A stretch of 64,000 nt of DNA from Kiritimatiellia bacterium (lineage in GTDB: Bacteria; Verrucomicrobiota; Kiritimatiellia; RFP12; UBA1067): contig JAZQOS010000020.1 of assembly GCA_045627925.1 (NCBI GenBank), forward strand, positions 2,942 to 66,941, read 5' to 3'. Numbering within the stretch: the first letter of the stretch is position 1; the number at the start of each line of letters is the position of its first letter. The notes beneath the pieces were generated by a model. The model saw only the letters and a list, made by a program, of their open reading frames with translations, was not told where the DNA came from and made no database searches. The position numbers and the translations under genes were made by a program. Shown piece after piece: positions 26,525-36,581 of this stretch.

Positions 26525-27402
26525 GGGCGATGGCGGCGAACGCATTCGAGGTCTGGTATTTTCCGGGATGGATGCGGGCGAACGAGCCGCAAGACGGAGT
26601 TTTGCCGGCGCTCGCGACTTGTTTCCCTGAATCGAAAATCGTCTTCAAGGCATGGGACGGCGATCGAGTTTGGCCGAAGGCGACCGAAAACGCCGATTTG
26701 GCGGCGGAATGCTTTGCGGACGAGATCGCAGCGTTGGATTGCGCGGAGCGGTCGAACCTCGTATTGGTAGGACATTCGTTGGGCGGAAGAATTGCGGCGC
26801 GAGTGTCTCGACGGCTCGGAGACCGAGGACTCAAAGTCAGGGAGACGGTGCTGCTCGGTGCGGCGATTCCGTATCGGGATGCGGATGTGGAGGCGTCGGG
26901 TCTTGGAAGCGAATTGCCGGTGATGGCGATTTGTAATCCGCAGGACGTGACGCTTCGATACGTGTATACCGTGCTCGGCGGCGAAAACTCGCCGGCTTTC
27001 GGAGCTAACGGCGCGCTCAAACGCCTCGAAAACGTGCGCGAGTACGTCGTACCCTCGACTATCGTCGCCGAAACTCCGATCGATCGGACGTGGGCGGATA
27101 TTCAAGCGGTGAAGGAAATTTGCAACCATCACGCGCTTTTCTATCTCGAATGTCTGCGGAGAATCGTCGGCGGCGAGGCGATGGACGAGGGAGTTATGGT
27201 GCCGCAGGATTTCATCACCGTCGAGTTGCCGGTAATGGATATCGGAGTGTGGTGGGATGTAATCGACGAATATGACGGGTGGAAGCTCGAGCGCAACAAG
27301 CTCACCGGTCATGCGCGCATCCTTGATCCCGGCAAAATTCGCAAGGCGTGGGGCTCGCTTGCGGTTCTGAAGCCGGCCTTTGAAAAGATCAAGCGCATGT
27401 GA
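26521..27402 (+). CDS. Alpha/beta-fold hydrolase
   Basis: Nucleophile elbow LVGHSLGG; C-terminal WW...GWKLERNKLTGHARILDP domain; start uncertain. Confidence 0.75.
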   Translation: MRAMAANAFEVWYFPGWMRANEPQDGVLPALATCFPESKIVFKAWDGDRVWPKATENADLAAECFADEIAALDCAERSNLVLVGHSLGGRIAARVSRRLGDRGLKVRETVLLGAAIPYRDADVEASGLGSELPVMAICNPQDVTLRYVYTVLGGENSPAFGANGALKRLENVREYVVPSTIVAETPIDRTWADIQAVKEICNHHALFYLECLRRIVGGEAMDEGVMVPQDFITVELPVMDIGVWWDVIDEYDGWKLERNKLTGHARILDPGKIRKAWGSLAVLKPAFEKIKRM

Positions 27403-27682
27403 ACGGAACTAAAAAGAGCGCCATTGGAGAGATCTTGCGATAAACGAGGGTGATGCGTCCGCTAATATCCGTTGGATCGCTAACGACCTTCAGATGCTTT
27501 GGCGGCGGTGCGCTCAAAATACGGAGGCCTTCATTTTCGGACATTGCTTCACGCGACTTCGCCACCACCTCCGCGAAACTTGACGTTTCGCCGCACGATG
27601 GGCATAACATAATATCCTTCGCCACGTTAATGTCATTGGGTGTGACTTCGCTTCCGCATCGTGGGCAACGATAAGTTTTCAT
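27389..27682 (-). pseudogene. Probably truncated Zn-ribbon membrane protein
   Basis: CPRC...CPSC, SD GGGAGA; ends within its first hydrophobic segment (FLVPFTCA*) where it meets the convergent hydrolase gene. Confidence 0.5.
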
Positions 27683-27705
27683 ATTCAACGATCTCCCGTT
27701 CGTTG

Positions 27706-27741
27706 TGGTGGAGGTGAGGATGGACAAAAGGCTGTCCGAAA
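27706..27741 (-). repeat. Degenerate copy of tmRNA 3' end (att-like scar 2)
   Basis: TGGTGGAGGTGAGG-N12-CTGTCCGAAA matches 29297-29332 except for the 12 central nt. Confidence 0.8.
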
Positions 27742-27983
27742 TCTACGCAAAATCGACTCCCTATTTTGCCAAAAAGTTCGTTTCCTTGCCATCATCTGTT
27801 ACAGCCGTTTAAGTGCGAGTATTATAGCACAGCCTTCGCCATTCGTCTAACGACAACTTTGGACGAGACACCTACTGGCAAGAAAACGAACTTTTTTCGG
27901 ACATCCTATTTCCTACCCGAATCTGGTCGTACAGACAAGAAAACGAACTTTCCCTATTTATCCGAAAGTCCTCTGCATTGACC

Positions 27984-28319
27984 CTATGTGGACTCTATTA
28001 TGCGCTTGCAATGCACACACTCGAAAGGCTCTCCTTTTACAATCGCCGTGAATCTCGCATTGTTTTCTTTGTCGCCAGGAAATTCGCGATGAGATTTTAC
28101 TGCACGCTGTCCGCAATGCGGACAGATGAGACAGTCATAGGCAGCATATTCACACAACGCACCGGAGAAACCTAGAACAACCATTGATAAAATTCCGAAT
28201 CCGGCTCCCATTGCGCCACCAATGAACGTCATGCACAAGGCGAAACCAGCACAAGCCATCACAGCCAACACCATCGCAGCGATTCGCAGTCTTCTGAACT
28301 TCCGGAAATCGGTCTTCAT
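27984..28319 (-). CDS. Small hypothetical membrane protein with two CxxC motifs
   Basis: 2 TM helices followed by CPHC...CVHC; SD-like AGGAAAG; lower GC. Confidence 0.65.
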   Translation of the reverse strand: MKTDFRKFRRLRIAAMVLAVMACAGFALCMTFIGGAMGAGFGILSMVVLGFSGALCEYAAYDCLICPHCGQRAVKSHREFPGDKENNARFTAIVKGEPFECVHCKRIIEST

Positions 28320-28321
28320 AG

Positions 28322-28729
28322 CTAAGGAGATTCTTTCCTGTCACACGCGTTTTTAAGCAGAGTCATTGATTTACATTTACCCCACTTGCGCTGAAAACGG
28401 GAATCATCACCTTCGTCCAATGTCCGATCAACAAGTCGGCCGTTGGCGTCATAGACAAGGTAAGCCGAGCCTGACGGCAAGAACCCCACTGGTCCCATGT
28501 TGAGCATTGTGTAGGTAGCACCATCCAACTCAACCGTCTTGATGTTCTTCACTGCAGATGGTTCTGCTACAATCAGTGCTTCTGGCGTAGGATATGTACA
28601 ATAACGATAGAAACACTTCGCGCCCGACGTTTCAAGGAAGATGATAAGTATAACAAGCCCACCCGCGGTCGCTACAACGACCGCAACGACCTTTAAGAAT
28701 TTAAAAGCAAATTTATATAATCGATTCAC
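28322..28729 (-). CDS. Hypothetical protein with N-terminal TM anchor
   Basis: GTG start 9 nt after a minus-strand TGGTATAAT (28739-28747); LPSGSAYLVYDANGRLVD..DEGDD motif; lower GC. Confidence 0.65.
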   Translation of the reverse strand: MNRLYKFAFKFLKVVAVVVATAGGLVILIIFLETSGAKCFYRYCTYPTPEALIVAEPSAVKNIKTVELDGATYTMLNMGPVGFLPSGSAYLVYDANGRLVDRTLDEGDDSRFQRKWGKCKSMTLLKNACDRKESP

Positions 28730-28826
28730 TTTAACTATATTATACCACACCGTTATTTTTTGCGCCACTGTATATTGCAAAACCTCGCATCGTTATACCG
28801 GTTAAGCTGAAAATCGGAAGTGGAAC

Positions 28827-28874
28827 CGAAGGATGGTGGAGATGCCGAACTTATGGAGTCGAACTTATGTCCGA
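28827..28874 (-). repeat. Degenerate copy of tmRNA 3' end (att-like scar 1)
   Basis: CGAAGGATGGTGGAG is identical to 29290-29304 and is followed by GGAGTCGAAC...TGTCCGA. Confidence 0.8.
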
Positions 28875-28897
28875 GCCAGTTTAGAAGCATACCTTGA

Positions 28898-29137
28898 TCA
28901 GAAATGCCGACGGGCGAACTCGTGGCCAGAGCCAGTTTTCAAATATCGCTCAAACGCCTGCGCTTTGACTTCTGCAGTAAACGCACAATAGAAATCGACT
29001 TCCCAAGGCTTATATTTAGCCGTGTGGTAGCATTTCCCAGAATTGTGTTCTGCAAGTCGACGCTTCAAATCTGAGGTTGAACCAATATAGTGTTGCTCGG
29101 GATGATCAACACTTACAAGCCGATATGTGTAATACAT
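28898..29137 (-). CDS. Stand-alone GIY-YIG nuclease family protein (79 aa)
   Basis: YYTY...HYIGSTSDLKRRLAEHNSG...KYKPW...FERYLKTGSG. Confidence 0.9.
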   Translation of the reverse strand: MYYTYRLVSVDHPEQHYIGSTSDLKRRLAEHNSGKCYHTAKYKPWEVDFYCAFTAEVKAQAFERYLKTGSGHEFARRHF

Positions 29138-29160
29138 GGCTGATATCCTTCATCTTTCAG

Positions 29161-29300
29161 TCCTCCTACGCGACTTCGTCGACTACGGAGGACACCATCC
29201 TTCGTCCGCTTCGGATGGCCAACCATCCTTCGCAAACAGCATCTACCTTCCTTTGGCCTGCCATCCGTAGCCAAACAGCTTGCTGTTTGCGAAGGATGGT
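29161..29300. repeat. Cluster of REP-like hairpins between ssrA and the GIY-YIG gene
   Basis: Hairpins at 29161-29192, 29196-29219 and 29261-29299; perfect 20-bp inverted repeat 29222-29241/29281-29300. Confidence 0.8.
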
Positions 29301-29649
29301 GGAGGTGAGGGGAGTCGAACCCCTGTCCGAAACGGTATCACCCAAGCGTCTACGCGTGTAGTCTGCCTTTAATCTCGAAATGGGCAAGCGGACAAACGCG
29401 CTAAGCTCAATTCATCCGCTTGATTCGGCACCCTGCAGCGAACAGGCGGAACTCCCTGCAGCGTGGTCCGATGAATTATGCCTTTTAGGTTATCGGGCGT
29501 CCCCTAATCGACATGCGGCCTTTATTTAGGCGGCAAGAGCGTAATCGTTGTTCGCAATTACAGTTTTTTCCCGTTTTTTAACGAGGCCAACGAGAATCCT
29601 CGACGCGCGACCTGACTTCAACACATTCCGTCGAAACCGGATCACCCCC
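29297..29649 (-). ncRNA. ssrA: tmRNA
   Basis: 5' GGGGGTGATCCGGTTTCGAC, 3' GGACAGGGGTTCGACTCCCCTCACCTCCACCA; tag frame ANNDYALAA* at 29555-29526. Confidence 0.97.
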
Positions 29650-29669
29650 ATAAGGGGAAAACGAGGCGA

Positions 29670-29703
29670 ATTATACCATAATTCACGTCCTTTGTGGTAT
29701 AAT
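29670..29703. promoter_or_regulatory. Divergent pair of extended -10 boxes (ssrA / phosphatase)
   Basis: ATTATACCA-N16-TGGTATAAT. Confidence 0.75.
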
Positions 29704-29713
29704 ACTTTGCCGT

Positions 29714-31312
29714 ATGAAGAACTTCGTCAAGATGAGTTTGAATGTGGTCGTCCTGTCGGCGGTCTTGTTCGTCGGCATTGCCATCTTCGTCGCGATGAGC
29801 ACCAAGTCGATGATGGTCGGCGAGGCGGAGCGTACGGTTCGAAGCGTCGTGCGCGCGACTGCGGGGCGCATTGATCTATTGATGTCCGAGGTGGAATCGG
29901 CGGTCAACAACTCGGCGTGGATGGTCGGCGAGCACCTTAATGACCCCGATTACATGTATCGCATTACCCGCGAGCTTGTGAAGAACAACGAGTTCATTGT
30001 CGGTAGCGCGATCGCCTTCAAGTCAAACTACTTCCCGAAGAAGGGCCACTTCTTCGCGCCTTACAGCTATCTTGACGAAAAGGACACGCTTAAGTTCAAG
30101 CAACTCGGCTCCGCCGACAACGACTATTTTATTCAGGAGTGGTACGATGTTCCATTGAAGAGCGGCGAGCGGTATTGGACGGAACCGTATTTCGACGAGG
30201 GCGGCGGTAAGATATTGATGAGCACTTATTCCGTGCCGATTAAGGACGCGAAAGGCGAGGTGTACGCGATTTTGACCGCTGATCTCTCGCTTGAACAGTT
30301 GCGCGGTTATGTCGCCGCGATCAAACCCTATCCGCAATCCTACGCCGTTTTGAAAACCGCGAAGGACGGCTATCTCGTTCGCCCGCCCCGGCAGAGCGAA
30401 GTCGACAAGATGATCACGATTCGCGATCATGCGGCGAACGGCTGGATTATCGAAATCATCTGTCCCGTCTCGGAGATTTTAAAAGGTGCCGAGGAGCTGG
30501 TCGTGAAGATTGTCATCTTCTCGCTCGCGGGACTTGCGCTTATCTTCCTTCTTTCCTGGTTTTATTCTTCGCGGCTTCAGCGCGCCACCGTCGAGCGTCA
30601 GCGCATCGCAAGCGAACTTTCGATTGCGAGCAAGATTCAGGAGGATATTCTACCGCGGAAGTTTCCCGATTATCTTACCGCGCGGCTTCGACCCGCGCGC
30701 GAGGTCGGCGGCGACCTTTACGATTTCGTGGAAGTGGGCGACAAAGTTTACTTTATCGTCGGCGACGCCTCGGGGAAAGGGGTTCCGGCGGCGCTCTTCT
30801 CATTTATGGCGGAGACGGCGTTTCGGCTTTCGTGCACGATGGGCTTGAAGCCCGACGCGATTGTCCGCAACATCAATTCAATTTTGGTTAACGGCAACGA
30901 CATGAGCATGTTCGTTACGACCTTCGTCGGGCTTCTCGACCGCAAAACCGATGCATTCGAATATTGCAACGGCGGGCATAATTCTCCGGTAGTCGTCGAC
31001 AAGGACGGCAAGGTCGAGTTTCTCGCGGTGAAGCGCAATTTGCCTTGCGGCGTTATGGAGGACTATCCGTTCACCTTGCAGTCCGCCCAGCTTTCGGCGG
31101 GTTCGACGCTGATAGTCTACACCGACGGCGTAACCGAGGCCGAACGCGCCGACCATTCCCAGTTCGGCGAGGGACGGCTCGACGATTTCGCGCTTGCGCA
31201 CGCCACGGAGGAGCCGTCCGCAATCGTCGGCAAGCTTTTCGCCGAGGTGGATCGTTTCGTCGCCGGTGCCGAGCAGTCCGATGACATAACGGTGATGGCG
31301 ATTCGGGTTTGA
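29714..31312 (+). CDS. Cache-domain sensor / SpoIIE (PP2C) family phosphatase
   Basis: TM-Cache (WTEPYFDEGGG)-TM, then PAREVGGDLYD, GDASGKGVPAA, YTDGVTEA and SDDIT. Confidence 0.93.
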   Translation: MKNFVKMSLNVVVLSAVLFVGIAIFVAMSTKSMMVGEAERTVRSVVRATAGRIDLLMSEVESAVNNSAWMVGEHLNDPDYMYRITRELVKNNEFIVGSAIAFKSNYFPKKGHFFAPYSYLDEKDTLKFKQLGSADNDYFIQEWYDVPLKSGERYWTEPYFDEGGGKILMSTYSVPIKDAKGEVYAILTADLSLEQLRGYVAAIKPYPQSYAVLKTAKDGYLVRPPRQSEVDKMITIRDHAANGWIIEIICPVSEILKGAEELVVKIVIFSLAGLALIFLLSWFYSSRLQRATVERQRIASELSIASKIQEDILPRKFPDYLTARLRPAREVGGDLYDFVEVGDKVYFIVGDASGKGVPAALFSFMAETAFRLSCTMGLKPDAIVRNINSILVNGNDMSMFVTTFVGLLDRKTDAFEYCNGGHNSPVVVDKDGKVEFLAVKRNLPCGVMEDYPFTLQSAQLSAGSTLIVYTDGVTEAERADHSQFGEGRLDDFALAHATEEPSAIVGKLFAEVDRFVAGAEQSDDITVMAIRV

Positions 31313-31905
31313 TGCAAACGGTAATTCTGGCTAATGGCGATTTCCCGCCGAAGGGCGGCGAGGCGTATTCTGCGCTTAAGCAGGCGAAGCGGGTTGTCGC
31401 TTGCGATGGTGCGGCGGCGGAGTTCTATCGGGCGTTTGGCCGGTGGCCGGACGCGGTTGTAGGCGACTTCGATTCTTCCTCGGGGTCTTGCGGCGACGCG
31501 GAACTTGTTAAATGCACCGACGATAATCTTAACGATCTCGAGAAGGCGATTCTTTATTGCAAGCTGACATTCGGGGACGACCTTGTGATCGTCGGCGCGA
31601 GCGGCAAGCGCGAAGACCATACGATTGGCAACATCTTCCGTGCGCTCGAATACGGAGTTAAGATTGTTACGGAAAGCGGCGTCTTTTATTCTCTCTTCGG
31701 CAAGGGAACGTTCTGCTCGCGCAAGAATGCTGGCGTTTCCATTTTCACGAATAACCCCAAGGCGAAGATGGAGTCCACGGGGCTGAAGTGGCCGCTTAAG
31801 GGCGTGAAGTTCTCCGCGCCTTACGTCGCGACCCTTAACCGCACCACTTCGACGCGCTTTACGATCAAGACCGATTCGCCTGCTTTCGTTTATATCGAAA
31901 GGTAG
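31312..31905 (+). CDS. thiN: Thiamine diphosphokinase
   Basis: ILANG, ACDGA, VVGDFDS, NDLEKA, GKREDH and GLKWPL. Confidence 0.9.
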   Translation: MQTVILANGDFPPKGGEAYSALKQAKRVVACDGAAAEFYRAFGRWPDAVVGDFDSSSGSCGDAELVKCTDDNLNDLEKAILYCKLTFGDDLVIVGASGKREDHTIGNIFRALEYGVKIVTESGVFYSLFGKGTFCSRKNAGVSIFTNNPKAKMESTGLKWPLKGVKFSAPYVATLNRTTSTRFTIKTDSPAFVYIER

Positions 31906-35466: not shown

Positions 35467-36581
35467 GTCTGGCGGTGGGAATCGTGGGTTTGCCGAACGT
35501 CGGCAAATCGACTTTGTTCAACGCGCTGACCAAGAAGCAGCAGGCGGCGGCGGAGAACTATCCTTTCTGCACCATCGAGCCGAACACGGCGGTGGTGGAG
35601 GTGAACGACGAGCGGCTCGAAAAGCTCGCCGAGCTCGCGAAGCCCGAGCAGATTATCCGCGCCACCGTCGACTTCACCGACATCGCGGGTCTCGTCAAAG
35701 GCGCGTCGAAGGGCGAGGGTCTCGGCAACAAGTTCCTCGCCAACATTCGCGAGTGCGACGCGATTCTCCACGTCGTTCGGTGCTTCGAGAACGACGACAT
35801 CATCCACGTTCAGGAGGGCGGCAACAAGTCCGCGCCGATCGATCCCGTGGGCGACGCCGAGGTGATCGAAACCGAGCTTATTCTCGCCGACATGGAGCAG
35901 CTTCAGAAGCGCTACGAGAAGGTTCGCAAGGAAGCCCAGGCGAAGCCGCCGATGCGTCCCGAGGCCGAGGCCTGCGCCGCGCTTTTGAAGCATCTCGAAG
36001 AGGGAAACCCCGTTCGGAGTTTCCCGCGCAAGGAAGGCGATGCGATTTTGAACGTTCTCAAGGAGCTTCACTTCCTTACCGACAAGAAGGTAATTTATTG
36101 CGCCAATGTCGCCGACGACAACGTCACCGGCGAGGGCAATCCCCACGTCGCCGCGCTCAAGGCCTACGCCGACCGTCAAGGCGCGAATATGGTCGTCATT
36201 TGCGCGCAGATGGAAGCCGATCTTGCGGGGCTTTCCGACGCCGAGGCAAAGGAGTTCTTGCAGAGCTACGGGTTGAGCGAATCGTCGCTGGACAGGACGA
36301 TCAAGCTCGCCTACGAAACCTTGGGACTCGCGAGCTTTCTTACGGCGGGGCCGAAGGAAGTTCGGGCGTGGACGTTCCGCCGCGGCTGGAAGGCGCCGAA
36401 GTGCGCCGGCGTCATCCACACCGATTTCGAAAAGGGCTTCATTCGCGCCCAGGTCGTCGCTTACGCCGATTACGTAAAGTACGGCGGCGAGGCGGGAGCG
36501 CGCGAGCACGGCGTTTTGCGTCCCGAGGGCAAGGAATACGAGATGCAAGACGGCGACGTCGTCGAGTTCATGTTCAACTAA
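35463..36581 (+). CDS. ychF: Redox-regulated ATPase YchF
   Basis: [31 protein letters not shown] and [12 protein letters not shown]. Confidence 0.98.

Follow-up and report, generated by a model that had tools for sequence, protein, structure and literature searches.

Islands and prophages integrate into the 3' ends of tRNA and tmRNA genes by means of tyrosine integrases. The locus described here raises the question of what an element of a few hundred nucleotides (nt), made up of conserved hairpins and a gene for a GIY-YIG nuclease of 79 amino acids (aa), is doing at the same kind of place, directly behind the tmRNA gene (ssrA) of a Kiritimatiellia bacterium of the gut. The stretch of DNA that was analysed, referred to below as the window, comprises 64,000 nt of contig JAZQOS010000020.1 (assembly GCA_045627925.1; 81 contigs, 1.78 Mb, 92% complete), and all coordinates are those of the window. 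A preliminary description of its sequence had proposed a unit of ~480 bp bracketed by repeats of the tmRNA 3' end, which could be either a REP-like element driven by the nuclease or a nuclease co-transcribed with a structured RNA. The GIY-YIG cassette behind ssrA is a real, well-defined feature, with the appearance of a mobile element that is very small and of a kind little described so far. On balance we favor the view that it is a mobile mini-cassette of the selfish type, in which an Ssn-like, hairpin-specific nuclease resides at tRNA-like CCA ends.

The cassette and its junction with ssrA

The tmRNA gene occupies positions 29297..29649 on the minus strand (ARAGORN; Rfam RF00023, 178.7 bits, full length) and carries the tag ANNDYALAA. 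In the sense of the tmRNA, its end (...CTCCACCA) is followed by a hairpin-rich spacer of 159 nt, the single-domain GIY-YIG nuclease gene (28898..29137, minus strand) with a Shine-Dalgarno-like AAGGA 8 nt upstream, a gap of 22 nt, and a decayed copy of the tmRNA end. All the elements that had been described next to ssrA were found in their places, including the decayed copy, although the latter lies 22 nt and not ~25 nt from the stop codon. The unit itself turned out to be shorter than the proposed ~480 bp: homology with the sister copy of the family, which is linked to tRNA-Leu (L042), stops at the stop codon (28896), leaving ~400 nt. Positions 28896-29296 represent one copy of a small cassette family, i.e., a hairpin module followed by the gene of a minimal and apparently catalytically intact GIY-YIG nuclease.

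The spacer is strongly structured. Folding of 29138-29304 gave z-scores of -8.2 and -7.6 for the two strands, and none of 200 shuffles was equally good; a search of Rfam over 27500-30500 at E <= 1 returned no family for this trailer, bar a weak sub-threshold match to tmRNA_permuted. Three hairpins had been claimed here. Two of them were recovered by a strict finder that requires both an outer and an inner stem as well as the unpaired blocks TWCG and CTWC, while the third (~29196) has the outer stem and the loop motifs but no inner stem, and falls within the 28-nt unit 29194..29221 described below. The sense hairpin H1 (29261..29299, minus strand) reads CCATCC-TTCG-[CAAACAGC..GCTGTTTG]-GCTAC-GGATGG, and its first three bases are the CCA of the tmRNA. 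The antisense hairpin H2 (29160..29193, plus strand) reads GTCCTCC-TACG-[CGAC TTC GTCG]-ACTAC-GGAGGAC. The perfect 20-nt inverted repeat that was reported to include the tmRNA ACCA is also there: its distal arm lies at 29222..29241 (no strand assigned), and its partner arm, 29281-29300, spans the tmRNA/cassette junction ACCA|TCCTTCG..., with the ACCA of the tmRNA included. This junction has an inverted copy, ACCA|TCCTTCG, which comes directly after H2 when the antisense strand is read. The cassette is joined to a tRNA-like 3' end in such a way that the RNA gene's own CCA forms the start of the first signature hairpin, the distal arm pairs back across the junction, and the second copy of the hairpin stands on the opposite strand just before the nuclease gene.

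The junction is also a place of variation. A 28-nt mini-hairpin unit with a flanking 11-nt direct repeat, ACCATCCTTCG, was found at 29194..29221 (plus strand) by repeat search and contig comparison, and the contigs of three other public runs (X9, X17 and X1), which agree with the window in other respects, lack exactly these 28 nt; besides this gap, the X1 contig shows 0 differences over 351 nt. The unit directly follows the ACCA of the antisense strand, and its own last four bases are ACCA as well. The difference is either an insertion at the CCA junction or a deletion between the 11-nt repeats, and, whichever event made it, the ACCA|TCC junction is where the population varies: the 28 nt were gained or lost at the cassette's own inverted 'hairpin + ACCA | TCCTTCG' junction.

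The co-oriented 79-aa gene had been assigned to the GIY-YIG nucleases, and this assignment holds. Its product matches Pfam PF01541 with 55.8 bits (cut-off 22.6; E 5.8e-15), with residues 1-68 of the Pfam model covered; NCBIfam and PHROGs gave weak matches only, those of NCBIfam being sub-threshold. In the alignment, Y17, R27, H31 and E63 are invariant and Y5 is nearly so. The predicted structure (mean local confidence, pLDDT, 96.1) contains strands 2-9, 16-21 and 45-53 together with helices, and the fold fills the entire chain. Its best structural matches are the nuclease domains of Slx1/HIGLE and UPF0213 proteins of solved structure, with template modeling (TM) scores of 0.69-0.76, normalized to the query, and domains of UvrC and I-TevI are found as well. 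The protein is the catalytic domain alone, without a DNA-binding extension. The ratio of nonsynonymous to synonymous substitution rates (dN/dS) is 0.07-0.09 where synonymous sites are unsaturated, i.e., the gene is under strong purifying selection, and the nuclease it encodes is, to judge by these comparisons, intact and under constraint. Apart from the cassette gene, the own genome has a single GIY-YIG match, which belongs to a 509-aa frame of a different contig.

How the gene is expressed may be read from the distribution of one motif. TGGTATAAT, with 11 matches in the window against 0.07 expected, looks like the extended -10 promoter motif of this organism. The site at 29670..29678 (minus strand), 21 nt upstream of the tmRNA start, is likely the ssrA promoter; no other is present on the minus strand in 28748-29669, and the next one lies beyond the cassette, at 28739-28747. 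Sites such as those at 2922, 2947, 29670 and 29695 often form divergent pairs ~25 nt apart. On the minus strand between ssrA and the nuclease gene there is no TGGTATAAT and no promoter-like or terminator-like site, and the nuclease gene is therefore probably expressed by read-through from the strong ssrA promoter. Contigs from three RNA libraries of two studies cover parts of the cassette and leave the flanks 28700-28843 and 29672-29750 uncovered, and those of run X1, which is of unknown kind, cover everything, flanks included. At a depth of 2-6 and with possible carry-over of DNA, neither the gaps in these contigs nor their depth show transcription or its absence.

Relatives, target genes and copies

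Among 40 relatives and the own genome, 11 genomes carry a homologue of the nuclease; the records of the relatives bear titles that point to Kiritimatiellia and other Verrucomicrobiota and to animal guts. Ten of these 11 homologues lie directly behind a co-oriented tmRNA (6) or tRNA (4) gene, and the eleventh is a fragment. A scan of the contigs of named genomes added 22 further loci, and a profile search of 401 genomes of the phylum gave matches in 174, often several per genome. When all fetched loci were deduplicated, 69 distinct matches remained, 59 of them full-length and 10 fragmentary or broken. As called by ARAGORN, 40 of the 59 full-length copies are found <= 500 nt behind a co-oriented tRNA or tmRNA gene. 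The other 19 comprise four copies in tandem arrays at such places, seven at contig edges and eight without an ARAGORN call; of these eight, one follows a tmRNA gene broken by Ns, five follow an end fragment of tmRNA or tRNA-Ala (8-38 nt) placed exactly at the cassette boundary, and two belong to cassettes that are truncated at the 5' side. The target genes are, besides tmRNA, those of tRNA-Ala (two anticodons), Val (three), Pro, Leu (two), Ser, Lys and Arg. The left flank of the cassette is always a tRNA-like end, and the right flanks are unrelated between loci; the neighbors that abut the cassettes include housekeeping genes (DnaJ, NifU, IF-2B). Three relatives, recovered with one peptide pattern, come from viral contigs and none of them stands beside a complete tRNA gene; their number is too small for phages to be named as the vector.

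The hairpins accompany the gene. Most relatives have the motif in the H2 orientation directly upstream of the GIY-YIG gene, and the layout of two hairpins, one copy per strand, recurs. Sequence is conserved in the outer stems and loop blocks, CC(A/C)TCC, TWCG, RCTAC and GGA(T/G)GG, and the inner stems covary between loci (CACGGCC/GGCCGTG, CGATTCGC/GCGAATCG, CTCC/GGAG). In 179,863 nt of loci, some places having been fetched twice, the strict finder gave 46 matches, all except one inside cassettes. In the own 1.78-Mb genome it gave four, of which two, H1 and H2, are real. The REP-like character that was proposed for these hairpins found no support in this search: CACCATCCTTCG has three copies genome-wide, all at this locus, the strict finder adds no true copy, and the motif is thus confined to the cassette and not dispersed in the genome. 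A looser hairpin pattern returned 133 matches genome-wide and was useless. Since, relative to the gene, one and the same motif is used in either orientation, the hairpins are most simply understood as a DNA signal read on the single strand rather than as an RNA structure. This bears on the proposed co-transcription of the nuclease with a structured RNA. Co-transcription is compatible with mobility and is favored by the lack of a promoter motif or terminator-like site between ssrA and the gene, but the hairpins look like DNA signals.

The pairing across the junction recurs, too. A perfect inverted repeat of >= 8 nt, starting 2-5 nt inside the end of the RNA gene and running across the junction, is present in 35 of the 40 loci linked to tRNA or tmRNA; among 46 tRNA-type genes of the own genome, used as a control, it is present in one, which is this very tmRNA gene. 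One tRNA-Leu locus ends in CACCC, and there the hairpin arm is changed to match, with GGGTG as the distal arm. In the own genome, the 3' flank of tRNA-Pro(tgg) on another contig (C57) reads TCCTTCGCG, which corresponds to the beginning of a cassette, but neither hairpins nor a gene follow; this may be a footprint or chance. The same tRNA-Pro(tgg) carries full cassettes in three relatives (L005, L079, L093).

The distribution of the cassette is patchy even within the genus, where five of 24 other genomes have a homologue. Comparison of ssrA in related genomes, which had been suggested as a check, did reveal sites with and without the cassette: among the 17 ssrA genes of the genus whose 3' flank is visible, this hairpin comes first behind seven, a different small cassette behind four and neither behind six, where the 'empty sites' are ssrA genes without the cassette and, because flanks are not conserved between the compared species, cannot be equated strictly with orthologous empty alleles. 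The tree of the 59 proteins has the window copy as sister to a tRNA-Leu-linked copy (support 99/81), and placement in it does not follow taxonomy, with deep forks unresolved. The cassette has switched targets: well-supported branches force at least six changes for tmRNA and at least five for Ala. Near-identical tandem units with periods of 364 and 402 nt stand behind tRNA-Lys and tRNA-Pro, and one tandem array closes with a hairpin module that has no gene. Two copies within one genome are 92% identical, and there is a genome that has a gene-less hairpin module behind tmRNA and a gene-bearing copy behind tRNA-Ala. The expectation that the homologues would be found with these hairpins and tRNA-like ends was borne out (40 of 59 copies behind tRNA or tmRNA genes, 45 of 46 strict hairpins in cassettes), and the family is tied to tRNA-like 3' ends through conserved hairpins at many different tRNAs, with no integrase beside it in the scan given below.

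Proposed mode of action and its alternatives

The hairpins may be the single-stranded DNA (ssDNA) recognition sites of the nuclease, a suggestion that is modeled on SsnA of Neisseria. Cutting at the hairpins, combined with host repair and recombination, would then allow the cassette to persist, to duplicate in tandem and occasionally to move to another CCA end; possible landing ends would include the copies of tRNA ends at the attachment sites of integrative elements. The substrate of the nuclease, the catalyst of the movement and the co-transcription with ssrA are what we infer from this arrangement.

Among described systems, the cassette comes closest to the Ssn family (CDD cd10448; SsnA of Neisseria meningitidis), which was characterized as site-specific ssDNA nucleases with hairpin repeats, the Neisseria Transformation Sequence (NTS) and the Ssn-related motif (SRM), by Chenal et al. 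2025 (PMC11893778). There, SsnA binds the hairpin repeat exclusively in single-stranded form, its cut falls a few bases upstream, mutations of Y6, Y17 and E64 inactivate it, and the authors note the IS-like layout of the Ssn gene and its repeats. The cassette protein resembles the Ssn proteins of that report in being a single-domain GIY-YIG protein (~80-94 aa; 79 aa here) with equivalent Tyr, Tyr and Glu residues (Y6/Y17/E64 of SsnA correspond to Y5/Y17/E63), whose gene is flanked by hairpin repeats conserved in both sequence and structure. The cassette hairpins, however, miss the SRM pattern as published there and have another conserved motif instead, and they are not spread genome-wide but stand only upstream of the gene, in inverted pairs. 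Unlike the Ssn genes, the cassette is fixed to the CCA end of tRNA or tmRNA genes. Supplementary Data 4 of the same work lists a cd10448 homologue in Kiritimatiella glycovorans, found by PSI-BLAST, below the CDD-score cut and with no SRM enrichment (0.74). The main text has 0 occurrences of tRNA or tmRNA. No published description of GIY-YIG cassettes at tRNA ends was found, and the PDF supplements of PMC11893778 may hold figures of gene neighborhoods. In all features that can be compared at the sequence level, the cassette agrees with the Ssn systems, save for the hairpin pattern and the lack of dispersed repeats, and its protein may be called Ssn-like.

Other known systems share single traits with the cassette. 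REP/RAYT and IS200/IS605 elements employ HUH Y1 transposases that act on ssDNA hairpins. Like the cassette, they combine a small enzyme with imperfect palindromes that have conserved unpaired bases, insert right after a short fixed sequence and come with gene-less hairpin units. In contrast to these elements, whose HUH transposases form covalent intermediates, the cassette has a hydrolytic GIY-YIG nuclease, its hairpins are undispersed and the three Y1_Tnp matches in the genome are all on other contigs (C57, C61, C69), in agreement with the earlier statement that the island has no HUH enzyme. REP/RAYT and IS200/IS605 are also discussed in the main text of PMC11893778. SegB, in the account given of it in PMC2330249, is a free-standing GIY-YIG homing endonuclease from the tRNA gene cluster of T4-like phages and shares with the cassette the position of a GIY-YIG gene beside tRNA genes, a behavior that in the cassette is probably selfish, and presence/absence polymorphism, which the cassette shows at ssrA sites that have no flanks in common. 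Seg proteins possess a DNA-binding domain, and their substrate is the empty allele in double-stranded form, whereas the cassette protein has the catalytic domain only. The flanks of the cassette vary between sites, which classic homing does not explain. Slx1/HIGLE and UPF0213, the best structural and sequence matches of the modeled cassette protein, have DNA with branches or flaps as their substrate and not simple duplex; unlike the cassette protein, Slx1 has an extra zinc-finger domain and a partner, Slx4, and no link to hairpin repeats or tRNA genes.

The repeats of the tmRNA end require separate consideration. The decayed copy behind the gene (copy 2; 28827..28875, minus strand) reads TCGGACA...CTCCACCA and is followed by TCCTTCG: it corresponds to the last ~43 nt of tmRNA, and the 7 nt after it are the first 7 nt of a cassette. 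As direct repeats of the tmRNA end, 28827-28844 matches 29290-29307 in 17 of 18 positions and 28855-28874 matches 29311-29330 at 85%. A third copy, new in this analysis, lies at 27706..27741 (minus strand) and consists of TTTCGGACAG, 12 unrelated nt and CCTCACCTCCACCA, with 10 and 14 perfect bases on either side of the unrelated ones. CTCCACCA occurs five times in the window against 0.67 expected. A 12-nt match at 35593, on the 5' side of ssrA, was weighed as a further copy and, with E 0.12, taken as chance. When the family was searched for copies of at least 10 nt of the last 30 nt of the tRNA, no more than 500 nt behind the gene, 2 of 40 loci had one, and the reversed-query control gave 2 of 40 as well. 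Homology with the nearest tmRNA-linked relative (L043) stops inside copy 2, at 28864. Because the frequency equals that of the control and homology ends at 28896 or 28864, tmRNA-end repeats are not part of the family design, and the bracketing that had been taken for a trait of the element is peculiar to this locus. The two downstream copies are probably traces of earlier insertion events at the hotspot, outside the cassette. Since the first 7 nt of a cassette stand directly behind it, copy 2 may once have been the end of a tmRNA gene with its cassette, displaced since then. Elsewhere, a ~55-nt duplication of the end of the preceding gene flanks one cassette in an array, which suggests that some insertions duplicate their upstream target.

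Several observations weigh against a mobile, selfish-type cassette. GIY-YIG enzymes hydrolyze DNA, and no joining activity is known for them; movement of the cassette by the nuclease alone is therefore not possible. Both the strong purifying selection and the presence in 174 of 401 genomes fit a gene useful to the host equally well. Synonymous sites are saturated between the window copy and its nearest relatives, so nothing points to a recent transfer into this genome. Ssn hosts have their hairpins multiplied around the genome, which is not the case here, and the published degenerate SRM pattern has 9 matches in the genome and 0 in the cassette. Comparison of 27000-31400 by tblastx and blastn with 25 tmRNA loci and 22 gene loci revealed no shared flanks, so that exact boundaries cannot be read from an orthologous empty allele. 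The protein tree is based on only 79 columns. Finally, with RNA folding parameters, the sense strand is the more stable one in 24 of 32 loci, which, related loci being non-independent, leaves room for a role at the RNA level.

Three other explanations have to be set against it. According to the first, which we regard as quite improbable for the cassette itself, the latter was left behind by deletion from, or carried at the edge of, a larger island or prophage that an integrase had inserted into ssrA; the repeats would be attachment sites and the GIY-YIG protein would have no part in mobility. Tandem tmRNA-end copies are the usual scar of tandem integrations at ssrA, and two such copies lie downstream in this window; the islet closed by copy 3 (27742-28826) has no GIY gene, and two of the three relatives on viral contigs stand beside a tRNA-Ser-like or tmRNA-like end fragment, as in an attachment site. 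The cassette thus shares with tRNA/tmRNA islands the hotspot and, in this window, the direct repeats, but it differs from them in its size of ~0.4 kb, in the absence of the repeats from 38 of 40 loci, where their frequency is that of the control, and in the lack of an integrase. As the preliminary description had it, the islets contain none, the nearest Phage_integrase match being ~30 kb away on the other, 5' side of ssrA, with none over 30 kb on the 3' side; at E <= 1e-10, Phage_integrase was not found in 133 frames of >= 130 aa at 27 cassette loci, the scan leaving aside a further 131 frames at 27 loci. Moreover, cassettes abut housekeeping genes. An integrase-driven island is likely as the source of the tmRNA-end repeats alone.

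It is also conceivable, if unlikely, that the spacer acts as RNA, i.e., as a trailer co-transcribed with tmRNA or tRNA that serves, e.g., as a double-stranded processing site at which the stable RNA is cut apart from the mRNA of the nuclease, its pairing with CCA being for 3'-end processing and not for DNA recognition. The read-through deduced from the lack of promoter motif and terminator-like site between ssrA and the gene would suit such a module, as would the perfect 20-bp stem that starts at ACCA and the greater stability of the sense strand (mean -3.4 kcal/mol); that cassette pieces occur in contigs of three RNA libraries in which the flanks are uncovered is a weak hint in the same direction. 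The motif, however, occurs in both orientations to transcription, so the two copies would belong to different RNA molecules, the trailer matches no Rfam family, G-U pairs are barely commoner in the sense fold (121 of 1798 versus 99 of 1737), and SsnA was inactive on RNA in the main text of PMC11893778. Little probability also attaches to a domesticated host gene, an Ssn-like ssDNA nuclease with a cellular role such as the control of incoming or replicating ssDNA, kept behind tRNA genes for expression only. Such a role would agree with the dN/dS values, with the wide occurrence in the phylum and with the modulation of natural transformation by Ssn in Neisseria (PMC11893778, main text). Against it speak the low frequency within the genus (5 of 24 other genomes), the 10 of 69 distinct matches that are fragmentary or broken, tandem arrays and target switching, and the fact that the only hairpin targets in the own genome are those in the cassette itself.

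Returning to the mobile cassette, a bolder version of it can be formulated, which we consider possible but doubtful: the cassette would represent a new class of minimal site-specific mobile element, ~0.4 kb in size, with a 79-aa hydrolytic nuclease that would read a DNA hairpin footed on the ...CCA end of a tRNA-like gene; nuclease and host repair together would insert the gene and hairpin units precisely behind CCA, whichever strand carries it. If this were true, the family would offer an insertion mechanism that needs neither transposase nor integrase, and it would be a natural source of ssDNA nucleases whose specificities are new and defined in part by structure. Even as a mobile cassette of the selfish type, with one protein of 79 residues and its hairpins, it would possibly rank among the smallest self-contained selfish elements in bacteria and would extend the Ssn nucleases from dispersed genomic repeats to a site-specific life at tRNA and tmRNA ends. 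The hairpins provide concrete oligonucleotide substrates on which new cutters specific for single strands can be tried, enzymes of a class that ssDNA technology has an interest in. The cassette helps to explain the variability and the frequent assembly breaks just behind tRNA and tmRNA genes (7 of the 59 copies are at contig edges), and, since it pairs with the CCA end and is probably reached by read-through from ssrA, maturation of an essential RNA may be affected.

Neighboring cassettes and minor observations

The islet of 1.1 kb between copies 2 and 3 is not part of the cassette. It has its own TGGTATAAT motif, the one at 28739-28747, and two open reading frames (ORFs) of 152 and 111 aa (27984..28780, minus strand), for which no family match was found except a weak one of the 111-aa ORF to Pfam YesK, below the cut-off (E 0.0017). 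The 111-aa ORF contains CPHCG...CVHC motifs, and a similar membrane and zinc-ribbon ORF (113 aa) is present behind the ssrA cassette of a relative (L025, 2372-2713).

The tmRNA 3' flanks of four loci (L021, L024, L025 and L027) contain a second small cassette, with repeats rich in GAATAGG/GTGATAG and a 124-aa gene that matches Pfam 23S_rRNA_IVP (PF05635; E 1.1e-26). Its junction lies immediately behind the discriminator base, and the RNA gene therefore does not encode CCA. The second cassette is also found behind the GIY gene in L045 and L049-L052, and, by eye, apparent truncated 3' ends of its genes are seen behind several GIY genes, which suggests that the GIY and 23S_rRNA_IVP cassettes stack or replace each other.

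Three further arrangements were noticed. Behind tRNA-Ser(tga) of one genome (L011 in G030), two tandem gene-less hairpin units of 137 nt, each ending in an 18-nt tRNA-Ser 3' end, are followed by a distant GIY gene and then by another copy of the tRNA-Ser end, four such ends in all. In L047 (125-1123, minus strand), a transposase of the IS1595 family lies directly upstream of a tmRNA-end fragment and a cassette, away from the real ssrA. Fic/DOC genes adjoin the cassettes in L044, L048 and L052.

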